Below, in pieces: positions 16,694 to 18,616 of a DNA stretch of 64,000 bases. The translations under genes were made by a program, and so were the position numbers. Numbering within the stretch: position 1 is the stretch's first letter; each line of letters starts with the position of its first letter. The stretch covers positions 603,708 through 667,707 of the forward strand of contig CBDCRA010000004.1 in assembly GCA_965220845.1 (NCBI GenBank). Reading direction: 5' to 3'. Source of the stretch: Candidatus Multivorans sp. (lineage in GTDB: Bacteria > Acidobacteriota > Thermoanaerobaculia > Multivoradales > Multivoraceae). Under the pieces are notes generated by a model. The model was not told where the DNA came from and searched no databases. It saw only the letters and a program-made list of their open reading frames with translations.

Positions 16694-18616
16694 ATGGCCC
16701 CGATCGTCATCGGCACCAGGGCGACGCCACTGGCGCGAATTCAGGCCGACCTGGTCGCCCGGCGGCTCGGCGAACTGGGCGTGGACACGCTGGTCCGAGC
16801 CATGTCTTCTCAGGGTGACCGCAGCCTCGGGGGGAGCTTCGCCCAGGCCAAGGGCGTGTTCACCGGCGAGCTGGCCGCGGCCCTGCGCGATGGCTCCGTA
16901 GACCTCGTCGTCCACTCGCTGAAGGACCTGCCGGTCGAGGACGAGCCCGACCTGGTGATCGCGGCGGTGCCGGAGCGGGAGCGACCGTTCGATCTGCTGC
17001 TGTTCGCGCCGGGCGACGAAGCGAACGAGACGAGCGAAGGAGCTCAGACGCTCGAGGAGCTGCTCGATCACGGCGACGACGCCCTGGAGGCACGCGCCAG
17101 ACCCGCTGGCGAAGCGTTCGCGCCGCTCTCGGTCGGCGCGCGCCTGGGCACCTCGTCGCCACGCCGGCAGGCCGGGGCGCTGGCTCTGCGGCCGGACCTC
17201 GTCTGCTGCGCCGTCCGCGGCTCGGTGGGACGCCGGCTCGAGTGGCTCCAGGGCGGCGCGATCGACGCCCTGCTGGCGGCGGAAGCGGGCGTCCTGCGTC
17301 TGGCGCGAAACGGCGAGCTGGAAGCTCCAGCCGGCGCCATCCGCGGTTTCCGGCTGGACCTTCGCTCCTGGCCATGCGCTCCCGGCCAGGGCGCCCTCGC
17401 GGTGCAGATCCTGCGCGGCGGGCGGCTGGATGGACATGCAGCGATGGCGGCGCTCGACCACTCTCCGAGCCGGGCGGCGGCCTTCGCCGAGCGTGCCCTG
17501 CTCGGCCGGTTGGGGGGTGGCTGTCTGCGACCTTTCGGGGCTTGGGCGGACGCCGGCGACGGGGAGGCGGAAGAGGTCGTACTGCGTGAGGTCCATGCCC
17601 TGATCGCACCCGATGAGTGGCGGGAGGCGGCCGCGGTCGGGGAGGCGCCGGCTGCCGTTCGTGCGGCCGGCTCGACGGCGGACGGCGACGGCAACGGCGT
17701 CGATCTTGGCGTATTGGCCGCGCGGATCGAGCGGGGTCTGGCGGAGTTCGGTGCCGGCCTGACGGCCGGCGCGGTTTCGAAGCCGCCTGCGGCGGCGGCG
17801 GGTCAGAAGACCCGCGCACCCAGCGGACAGAAAGGCCCTACACCCAGCTGCCGAAGGGCCACCGCGCCCAATGTGGAGCTGCCGGATCTCATTGTCACCT
17901 CCTCCCCTACTGCGGTCCGCCGGCTGACCAGGCGGCTCGAGCCGGCCATCCGGGTCGCGGCTCTGCCGGCGACCACCGTCGAGGTCTTCGATACCCCCTG
18001 GCCGGCCGACCGTATCGACCTGGACGGGCCGCGTCGGCAGTGGCCCTGGCTGCTCGTCTCCTCCCCGAACGCCGCACGCGTCGTGGCGGAGCGCGCCGCG
18101 CGAGAGCCGGTCTGGGGCCGGCTGCCGTGGTGCGCGCTGGGCGAAGGCACGGCCCGCGCGCTGCTGGCGGCCGGCGTGCCGCCGAATCTGGCGGCCCGGG
18201 CTTCGGGCGGCCGGGACCTTGCCGACTACGCGGCCCGGGTGCTCGACCCGCATTGCCCGCTGTTCGTGCCGCATTCCGCCCGCGGCGGAGCGTCGCTCGT
18301 CGAGGCGCTCCAGGCGGCCGGCCGCCAGGTCACTGCCTGGGCGGCCTACACCGTGCATCCGAATGACGCACTCGACTGGCCGCAAGGTTGGCAAGCGGCC
18401 CACGCCCGCGTACTCTTCACCGCTCCATCGGCGGTTTCCGCCTTCGCAGCGTCCGGCCTGGACTGGCCGGGAAGCTGCTGGGCGGTCGGAGCCGCCACAG
18501 CCGCGGCGCTCCGAAGCGCCGGAGCCGGCAACGTGAAGTGCGCACAGGAACCGACCGCCGCCGGCATCGAACGCCTGTGGCTCGAGGAAGTGGGCGCCGA
18601 CCCTAAGGGGGACTGA
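16694..18616 (+). CDS. hemCD: bifunctional hydroxymethylbilane synthase / uroporphyrinogen-III synthase (HemC-HemD fusion)
   Basis: N-terminal 300 aa is HemC (IGTRATPLARIQ...KGVFTGEL...VHSLKDLP). C-terminal 240 aa is HemD-like (LIVTSSPTAV...LLVSSPNAARV...VLFTAPSAV). A single ORF joins them through an Ala/Gly/Pro-rich linker that contains a REP-like repeat. Confidence 0.82.
   Translation: MAPIVIGTRATPLARIQADLVARRLGELGVDTLVRAMSSQGDRSLGGSFAQAKGVFTGELAAALRDGSVDLVVHSLKDLPVEDEPDLVIAAVPERERPFDLLLFAPGDEANETSEGAQTLEELLDHGDDALEARARPAGEAFAPLSVGARLGTSSPRRQAGALALRPDLVCCAVRGSVGRRLEWLQGGAIDALLAAEAGVLRLARNGELEAPAGAIRGFRLDLRSWPCAPGQGALAVQILRGGRLDGHAAMAALDHSPSRAAAFAERALLGRLGGGCLRPFGAWADAGDGEAEEVVLREVHALIAPDEWREAAAVGEAPAAVRAAGSTADGDGNGVDLGVLAARIERGLAEFGAGLTAGAVSKPPAAAAGQKTRAPSGQKGPTPSCRRATAPNVELPDLIVTSSPTAVRRLTRRLEPAIRVAALPATTVEVFDTPWPADRIDLDGPRRQWPWLLVSSPNAARVVAERAAREPVWGRLPWCALGEGTARALLAAGVPPNLAARASGGRDLADYAARVLDPHCPLFVPHSARGGASLVEALQAAGRQVTAWAAYTVHPNDALDWPQGWQAAHARVLFTAPSAVSAFAASGLDWPGSCWAVGAATAAALRSAGAGNVKCAQEPTAAGIERLWLEEVGADPKGD
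17787..17824. repeat. REP-like element A copy embedded in-frame in the hemC-hemD linker
   Basis: 36/38 nt identical to 4173-4210, including the exact 25-mer gggtcagaagacccgcgcacccagc. Translates as AAAAGQKTRAPS within the fusion linker. Confidence 0.75.

Follow-up and report, generated by a model that had tools for sequence, protein, structure and literature searches.

A HemC-HemD fusion in Candidatus Multivorans and the REP-like repeat cluster that coincides with its interdomain tether

When a short palindromic repeat lies inside the coding sequence that joins two enzymatic domains, it has to be asked whether the repeat brought the domains together or arrived in a linker that already existed. 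This question is raised by hemCD, a haem biosynthesis gene in a 64,000-nucleotide (nt) stretch of the Candidatus Multivorans sp. assembly GCA_965220845.1 (contig CBDCRA010000004.1, positions 603,708 to 667,707), hereafter the window, to which all coordinates refer unless a related locus is named. The first-pass annotation of this gene had reported a match between the linker and an intergenic repeat of the same stretch, and had offered three explanations: in-frame insertion of a mobile palindromic element into the linker of a pre-existing fusion, fusion of two genes by element-mediated rearrangement, or a frameshift hiding a hemC stop codon. The comparison with HemC and HemD of relatives revealed that the two are fused throughout the close matches and that distant linkers lack the repeat. 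It is very probable that an old HemC-HemD fusion had its tether colonised and remodelled by the genome's own repetitive extragenic palindromic (REP)-like repeats, which are most likely tolerated passengers.

The hemCD gene and its repeat-built tether

The hemCD open reading frame (ORF) spans 16694-18616 (+), starts with ATG and encodes 640 residues followed by a stop, with predicted activities of hydroxymethylbilane synthase as well as uroporphyrinogen-III synthase (UroS). Its HemC part (residues 1-353; 16694-17752, +) contains the invariant GGGC cofactor-cysteine motif with C277 and a lineage-specific insert at about residues 107-143, and the HemD or UroS part (residues 395-640; 17876-18613, +) starts with a conserved PDLIVTS strand. 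Pfam analysis of the protein recovered Porphobil_deam (PF01379) at residues 4-240 with 154 bits, a weak match to Porphobil_deamC at residues 263-295, and HEM4/HemD (PF02602) at residues 449-624 with 74.6 bits against a cut-off of 27.5, and the TIGR00212 hemC equivalog was exceeded as well (178.7 bits, cut-off 164). The NCBIfam equivalog NF004593 reached 38 bits against a cut-off of 275, and given this low score the HemD half is a divergent member of UroS. An AlphaFold2 model built on 44 homologues was confident for both halves (predicted template-modelling, pTM, score 0.85). Foldseek related the first half to the three-domain fold of the solved HemC structures 1pda, 5h6o and 4mlq (target-normalised TM 0.77-0.80) and the second to the two-lobed UroS fold of 3p9z, 4es6, 3re1 and 1jr2 (E 1e-6 to 6e-9, target-normalised TM up to 0.71). 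Moreover, GGGC with C277, SLKD (75-78), SSPRR (154-158) and R175/R181 were invariant across 44 aligned sequences, as were the domain boundaries flanking the linker; from E. coli HemC we take C277 to be the dipyrromethane-binding cysteine and the basic residues to bind the substrate. The agreement of Pfam, TIGR00212, AlphaFold2 and Foldseek bears out the initial description of a single ORF with HemC followed by a HemD-like domain, and hemCD appears to encode a real, functional-looking bifunctional enzyme, both activities being predicted.

Between the two domains, residues 354-394 (17753-17875, +) form the sole long stretch of low confidence in the model, with a predicted local distance difference test (pLDDT) score below 50, and this stretch coincides with an in-frame REP cluster whose modules occupy 17753-17872. 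The linker had been described as some 60 residues long and as including a 38-nt repeat. The repeat is indeed there, and its translation (...AAAAGQKTRAPSGQKGPTPS...) was given correctly; the disordered linker measures about 41 residues, and the repeat makes up the whole of it. The cluster begins with hairpin A (17753-17770, +; GCCGGCC-TGAC-GGCCGGC, encoding AGLTAG), which scored 22.4 bits with a covariance model of the family and is separated by a short GCG-GTTTCGAA spacer from hairpin B (17782-17796, +; GCCGCC-TGC-GGCGGC, encoding KPPAAA). Hairpin B is followed by three tandem 24-nt units, each composed of a hairpin and GCGCACCCAG. The first (17801-17824, +; GQKTRAPS) consists of the hairpin GGGTC-AGAA-GACCC, referred to below as hairpin C, and the tail GCGCACCCAGC, scores 42.5 bits (E 4e-9) and is the core of the match reported earlier. 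The second (17825-17848, +; GQKGPTPS) is a decayed tandem copy with 17/24 positions identical to the first, an identity reached by 0.03% of random in-frame 24-mer pairs from hemCD, and it is missing in P0002, a relative at 90% identity. The third (17849-17872, +; CRRATAPN) is more decayed, with 16/24 positions shared with the family consensus, and is the weakest call, backed by L002 and P0009, in which a third unit is more clearly recognisable at this position. The 24-nt units escaped Tandem Repeats Finder owing to their small number and their decay, and direct comparison backs them instead. The linker thus reads AGLTAG...KPPAAA.GQKTRAPS.GQKGPTPS.CRRATAPN.

The reported identity of 36/38 nt between 17787-17824 and 4173-4210 was correct, and the match extends to 58 nt at 86% identity (17767-17824 against 4153-4210), with an exact 25-nt core (GGGTCAGAAGACCCGCGCACCCAGC) at 4186-4210 and from 17800. 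In fact, the linker is colinear over about 85 nt with two clusters of the window, at 4144-4211 and 7132-7205 (-). The three share the order hairpin A, GCG spacer, hairpin B, hairpin C and tail, and hairpin B holds the same relative position in the two other copies (4165-4179 and 7160-7174, -). Because this three-hairpin order recurs at both loci, the linker is itself a repeat cluster: the whole disordered tether coincides with it, which is more than a protein segment bearing a patch of repeat.

Two further length variations of the protein were observed outside the linker. The HemC insert of about 36 residues (nt 17012-17125) is lineage-specific relative to solved HemC structures and was recognised because phmmer matches split at 107/144; P0085 carries about 50 additional residues at this site, and P0094 is listed for the same region. 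P0085 also presents a tandem duplication (DLDALAAVRVAASAPDGDG) just ahead of the linker.

Linker turnover and the age of the fusion

The linker DNA was delimited between the conserved RIERGL and PDLIVTS motifs in 23 genomes and coded by module, with A and B for the respective hairpins, T for the tail, and q, d and e for variants of hairpin C. Three linkers had no module (L017, L019 and L021; 87-141 nt). Hairpin A was found in 19 of the 23 related linkers, and together with the tail alone it constitutes the shortest repeat-bearing ones (A-T, 87 nt; L010, L012, L016, L020 and L023), in two of which, L012 and L020, the hairpin is broken. Longer arrangements were A-q-T (117 nt; L004, L009 and L011), A-B-q-T (132 nt; L005 and L008), A-B-d-T (132 nt; L007), A-B-e-T (147 nt; L001), A-B-q-T-q-T (186 nt; L014), A-q-q-T-T-T (204 nt; L002), A-B-e-T-e-T (207 nt; L003) and A-q-B-d-T (207 nt; L013 and L015). 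The window carries A-B-q-T-T(-T) in 180 nt, its third tail coming from the separate comparison of units, and L006 and L018 presented further variants, which gives at least 10 architectures. These cut across the HemCD tree, as exemplified by L010 (A-T), sister to L008 (A-B-q-T), and by L009 (A-q-T), sister to L007 (A-B-d-T). Similarly, among protein homologues of at least 62% identity with a delimitable linker, its length ranged from 14 to 98 residues, with up to four tandem GQxGPTPS units (P0009). Assembly error in metagenome-assembled genomes (MAGs) was considered as the cause of this diversity and rejected: identical architectures recur across independent assemblies (for example in P0020-P0025, and in the complete chromosomes of L005 and L008), and a single read is longer than any of the clusters.

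The closest genome locus, L001, is 93% identical in nucleotide sequence over hemCD, and its hairpin C differs from that of the window at 8/16 positions (CGGGTCAGAAGACCCG vs CCGGCGAGGGCGCCGG), as against 3/76 in the flank (Fisher p = 1.7e-5). Both versions are perfect hairpins and canonical variants of the family, and the difference looks like the replacement of one module by another copy rather than point mutation. The tandem periods within linkers were 24, 27 and 39 nt, and modules were gained, lost and duplicated in multiples of 3 nt, which fits a filter imposed by the reading frame. These changes among close relatives, together with the fused orthologues that lack the repeat, favour the first of the original proposals, in-frame insertion into the linker of a pre-existing fusion. 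REP-like palindromic units have colonised the unstructured tether of an already fused HemC-HemD, and the insertions would have survived there because the site is structurally unconstrained, because the GC-rich units are stop-free in almost every frame and because only length changes of 3n would pass selection. The events themselves could be some mix of transposition or homing to a place beside a resident REP, slippage of the replication machinery from one 24-nt unit to another, and ectopic gene conversion with other copies as donors, and the repeat would most likely be a tolerated passenger that sets the length and sequence of the linker, no adaptation being involved.

Several points weigh against this reading or restrict it. 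The neighbour-joining (NJ) tree rests on one protein, HemCD, and is poorly resolved at depth, and in one of its weakly resolved parts the repeat-bearing L014 falls together with L017 and L019, which have no repeat, so the number and direction of gains and losses are uncertain. The shortest repeat-bearing linker, A-T with 87 nt, has the same length as the repeat-less linker of L017, and for this reason a replacement or conversion, in place of a simple insertion, could have been the first event. Transposition is something we infer, since no transposase, be it a Y1 enzyme (REP-associated tyrosine transposase, RAYT) or another, was found in the 20 ORFs scanned with Pfam (hemCD and 19 others, roughly half of the ORFs of the window), and neither a target-site duplication nor a terminal inverted repeat was recognised in the comparison of filled and empty sites, where boundaries are blurred by nesting beside older units. 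A GTAG or CGTC tag abutting the stem, as known from other intragenic REPs, was absent from the aligned units. Over 22 copies the stem was 99.4% paired, with compensatory double changes at 4/7 pairs and a covariation score reached by 0/500 shuffles, and this result is inflated, the test being partly circular in that the copies had been pre-selected by a perfect-stem filter of at least 5 bp. Finally, the copy counts obtained with the covariance model built from the 22 copies, 8 matches in the window, scoring 38-52 bits, and 47 in the related loci, which amount to 520 kb, pertain to these regions and not to a whole genome.

A function of the hairpins or of linker length would equally count against passive colonisation. 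The hairpins, as mRNA or DNA, might act at the domain boundary, by translational pausing for co-translational folding of HemC, by stabilising the mRNA or as an internal processing site, or the length of the tether might be tuned, through gain and loss of modules, for the hand-over of the unstable hydroxymethylbilane from HemC to HemD. Hairpins A, B and C are all perfect in the window, the repeat is kept in most of the clade, swapped hairpin variants stay paired, and the 126-nt linker region folds somewhat better than its shuffles (-66.4 kcal/mol, z = -2.2). However, this z-score is modest, recent copying from other REPs would account for perfect stems just as well, the range of 14-98 residues follows no pattern, and lineages with no unit or with one decayed unit, such as the broken hairpin A of L012 and L020, keep an intact gene. 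Moreover, as described in the next section, coding sequences unrelated to hemCD hold the same repeats, read in other frames and also placed in the opposite orientation, which is why passive tolerance is favoured and an adaptive cluster seems improbable.

That the repeat itself created the fusion is much less probable still. According to this explanation, a spacer REP or a REP-mediated rearrangement, with loss of the hemC stop, would have left the repeat as the linker. REPs of this family do typically sit immediately past stop codons, and read-through into a REP happens in the lineage, where the hemH stop was overrun with a 31-residue extension. Nevertheless, PF01379 and PF02602 were found in a single chain in about 110 proteins of the protein search, which belong to Candidatus Multivorans and other Thermoanaerobaculia and range in identity between 98% and 42%, and both domains are likewise fused in additional proteins at 32-40% identity, far outside the repeat-bearing clade. 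The same fusion was present at 24 loci of GTDB species genomes, among which are several complete long-read chromosomes (3.7-5.1 Mb) with a single hemCD ORF. Fused genes whose linker lacks a REP module exist both inside the group (L017, L019 and L021, at 62-76% identity) and far outside it (L024, 42%), and because of these repeat-less outgroups the repeat did not make the fusion. Separate hemC and hemD genes were not found among about 112 close matches; two entries with one domain each, P0098 and P0099, have the look of truncated gene calls, the linker still being included in P0099. The distribution of the two domains, as read from sequence, indicates a genuine fusion that apparently arose long before the arrival of the repeat, and the rearrangement proposed in the first-pass annotation has to be given up.

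The frameshift explanation, by which a sequencing or assembly error hides the stop of hemC and the genes are really separate, draws on its prior plausibility in a GC-rich repeat and on nothing more. Over 100 independent assemblies, which differ in sample and in sequencing technology and include complete chromosomes, show the same single ORF, the codon-position GC bias (GC at third positions, GC3, 0.83) is continuous across the entire ORF, and there is no conserved alternative start for HemD or stop for HemC. An artefact is excluded because at least 110 independently assembled orthologues hold both domains in one ORF, and its probability is negligible. The same holds for a chance or compositional resemblance of an Ala/Gly/Pro-rich linker in a GC-rich genome (68% GC over the window), where many weak repeat pairs in the self-comparison of the window are indeed compositional, given that the 25-nt core match appeared in 0/100 dinucleotide-preserving shuffles, that three hairpins and the tail are colinear over 85 nt with two loci, that the covariance-model score is highly significant, and that relatives hold different canonical variants at the same spot.

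The repeat family and the coding contexts that it occupies

In the unit of the family, a GC-rich stem of 7 bp closes a loop of 4 nt and is accompanied by the flank GCGCACCCAGTG, which reads CACTGGGTGCGC on the opposite strand, and the unit is often preceded by a second hairpin, GCCGC-TTC-GCGGC or CCGGCGC-TTC-GCGCCGG. The stem is bordered by GCGCACCCAGTG on one side and by GAT or GGC on the other, so that GTGC abuts it on the opposite strand. Besides the matches counted above, the covariance model picked the linker's hairpin A (22 bits) and, at 1592-1621, a degenerate copy that is intergenic. Rfam returned no family match anywhere in the window, and a metagenome scan for the exact q-variant unit retrieved two near-identical contigs (L026 and L027) with a REP cluster at an unrelated locus. 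A protein search with the repeat-encoded peptide, aimed at other proteins that contain it, yielded no candidate beyond the word index.

Most copies lie from a few to about 20 nt 3′ of stop codons (those at 27378, 32069, 38614, 39411 and 4144), which is the classic REP position. The three-hairpin cluster at 4144-4211 (+), partner of the match reported at first, is intergenic and 20 nt downstream of the stop of the Glu/Gln-tRNA synthetase gene (4124). Two-hairpin REPs were found at 27378-27428 (-), between convergent genes, at 32069-32120 (+), 5 nt past the stop of a gene for an MFS transporter, at 38614-38674 (-), directly after the stop of a GH15 gene, and at 39411-39471 (-), between the stop of a GPP34 gene (39403) and the start of a methyltransferase gene (39485). 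A degenerate two-hairpin copy at 62923-62969 (+) probably lies between divergent genes. Presence/absence polymorphism was observed at 27378-27428, downstream of an aldehyde dehydrogenase gene, where the site is filled in the window, L002 and L010 and empty in L006 and L019, and also in the hemCD linker and in the two other coding contexts described below. In L014 (4673-4814), four perfect tandem 37-nt units (CGGCGGATGCGGGTCGGAAGACCCGCGCACCGACACC) stand immediately after a stop codon, and this period demonstrates that intergenic arrays are not bound to multiples of 3 nt. The reverse derivation, of the intergenic copies from the hemCD linker, was considered and rejected, since several hairpin variants occupy many sites and the linkers of different genomes carry different canonical variants.

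Two further repeat occurrences were noticed. A second repeat family is represented by a 45-nt element with a 10-bp hairpin (GGGTGGCGCG-TTC-CGCGCCACCC), present at 4218-4262 and 30066-30110 with 96% identity, and the copy at 4218 is placed directly 3′ of the REP cluster 4144-4211. In L018, a REP unit (9884-9914, 29.7 bits) precedes the start codon of hemCD by about 90 nt, within the divergent promoter region, a place where the window has none.

The repeats are translated, or very probably so, in two genes other than hemCD. The stop-free frames numbered 6/6 for both units with GCCGGC stems, 5/6 for the q unit and 4/6 for the three-hairpin composite. The first of these genes, at 5815-7227 (-), encodes a secreted TPR protein and contains the cluster 7132-7205 (-) within its N-terminal coding region (about residues 8-32). 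Its start ATG overlaps the stop of the upstream FG-GAP/ASPIC gene (ATGA), and this context is shared by the window and the four relatives whose sequence is complete at this place. L008 and L015 (about 500-700) have a short signal peptide (MRSFAALIGLIAAAASA|AELPSPDL) as their N-terminus, with no REP in it. In the window, about 25 residues encoded by the full three-hairpin cluster are interposed, in a frame that differs from the hemCD reading, and L011 (400-560) and L020 (490-620) carry a single unit in opposite orientation (..SGCAGLLTRIRS.. and ..CRCAGLLAGIRG..). The ATG and the hydrophobic core have no in-frame start codon between them, which makes translation of these repeats very probable.

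The other gene belongs to the haem cluster hemCD-hemL-hemF-hemH-hemA, in which hemCD is followed by hemL (18617-19915), hemF (ending at 20916), hemH (ending at 21979) and hemA (22025-23383). In the window, HemH ends in ...NTREWRGG* (21950-22025 region), and in L001 (15225-15330), L011 (15170-15275) and L018 (15215-15320) a reverse-oriented REP displaced the stop, yielding ...NTREWRTLGAPAPPPASD... and a repeat-encoded C-terminal extension of about 31 residues. Three coding contexts, the hemCD linker, the TPR N-terminus and the HemH C-terminus, thus lie within one 20-kb neighbourhood. In the same cluster of L015 (about 11770-11830; contig JAPVXD010000079.1 of a Ca. Multivorans azotirespirans MAG), HemD (...CWAIGAAT) runs directly into HemL at about residue 16 owing to an in-frame deletion. 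The resulting 1029-residue HemC-HemD-HemL ORF could be either a true triple fusion or an artefact of the assembly.

Known systems, host lineage and neighbouring genes

In-frame palindromic repeats within genes and HemC-HemD fusions have both been documented already. Intragenic REPs tagged by GTAG or CGTC are described for several phyla by Di Nocera et al. (2013, PMC3733652). Many of them form dimers or clusters that encode 20-30 residues (up to 43-82) at N-termini, C-termini and internal sites, and such inserts were proposed to be neutral on account of their siting in flexible linkers or loops. The Multivorans repeats resemble these in being short GC-rich stem-loops placed mostly just downstream of ORFs and in a minority inside them (PMC3733652). 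They differ in lacking either tag, having the flank GCGCACCCAGTG (CACTGGGTGCGC) in its place, in the lack of a RAYT among the 20 scanned ORFs of the window, and in that a whole interdomain tether is built of repeats, with a modular turnover traceable over 23 genomes. Lacking a tag, they are likened to intragenic REPs and RPEs in their way of working without being filed in the GTAG/CGTC superfamilies, and Thermoanaerobaculia were not found among the hosts described for these. Rickettsia palindromic elements (RPEs) are selfish repeats carried in-frame by housekeeping and metabolic genes (Ogata et al. 2000, summarised in PMC10969869 and PMC3733652). As with RPEs, the host ORF stays open, orthologues that lack the insert exist and the location fits the protein fold; however, RPE-1 elements measure about 100-150 bp and each encode a conserved peptide in an AT-rich, reduced intracellular genome, whereas the Multivorans units measure 24-31 nt, are GC-rich and clustered, belong to genomes of about 4-5 Mb and are read in several frames and both orientations. 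In view of these precedents, the presentation of the locus as an unusual example of repeat-driven protein evolution was overstated (PMC3733652, PMC10969869).

The Multivorans units also share features with other palindromic repeats, being organised as mosaic clusters of hairpin variants with short conserved spacers, with new units beside old ones and a variable hairpin next to a conserved flank. In this they are like the bacterial interspersed mosaic elements (BIMEs) and REP clusters of E. coli and the REP doublets forming hairpins (REPINs) associated with RAYTs (Gilson et al., Nunvar et al., Bertels and Rainey), which are extragenic by definition and typically arranged as inverted pairs. In contrast, the units of the hemCD linker all have one orientation and are translated, and no RAYT accompanies them in the scanned ORFs. 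As for the fusion, a HemC-HemD (HmbS-UroS) protein with dual activity was reported in Leptospira interrogans (Guegan et al. 2003, cited in PMC8698207). The Multivorans protein has the same layout, an N-terminal hydroxymethylbilane synthase and a C-terminal uroporphyrinogen-III synthase in one polypeptide, with its activity being predicted. We know of no indication that the linker of the Leptospira protein is repeat-derived.

What is new here is the host lineage, a tether that is entirely a repeat cluster, its well-resolved modular turnover and the presence of three coding contexts in 20 kb. The locus represents a clean, phylogenetically resolved case in which selfish palindromic repeats build and remodel a protein segment, with gains, losses, duplications and swaps of modules that can be read directly because many closely related genomes exist. 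The repeats are tolerated in a disordered tether, in the n-region of a signal peptide and in a C-terminal tail, and the reasons would be the stop-free GC-rich units and the 3n filter. The phenomenon is thereby extended to Acidobacteriota, the understanding of haem synthesis and of REP biology being unchanged, and for annotation it follows that repeat-derived low-complexity linkers in these MAGs are real and no frameshift artefacts. A bolder proposal, which we regard as rather unlikely, is that of a previously undescribed untagged REP family with the flank CACTGGGTGCGC that preferentially lands beside its own copies and, in the manner of RPEs but in a genome that is large and GC-rich, routinely contributes translated sequence to interdomain tethers, the n-regions of signal peptides and C-terminal tails. 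It would thereby serve as a fast, modular generator of disordered segments, and in hemCD changes in tether length could modulate the hand-over of hydroxymethylbilane from one active site to the other.

The closest protein entry to the HemCD of the window is P0001 (98% identity), and among genomes the nearest are MAGs that carry the label Candidatus Multivorans, Thermoanaerobaculia bacterium or Holophagales bacterium, the genus Candidatus Multivorans being filed under Acidobacteriota; Thermoanaerobaculia. Sample names and the GPP34 gene of the window suggest that the lineage is associated with sponges, the eukaryote-like GPP34 family having been linked to sponge symbiosis (PMC11706023). This GPP34/GOLPH3-family gene (PF05719, 153 bits; 38702-39403, +) is located between the two direct REP copies at 38614-38674 and 39411-39471, which are 85% identical. 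On the other side of hemCD and divergent from it, there is a Peptidase_M2 gene (14775-16595, -; 732 bits) for a full-length bacterial homologue of angiotensin-converting enzyme, whose N-terminus resembles a signal peptide. Farther along the window, two adjacent paralogous genes of about 340 residues each (41142-42161 and 42194-43216) share a 300-nt stretch with 71% identity.

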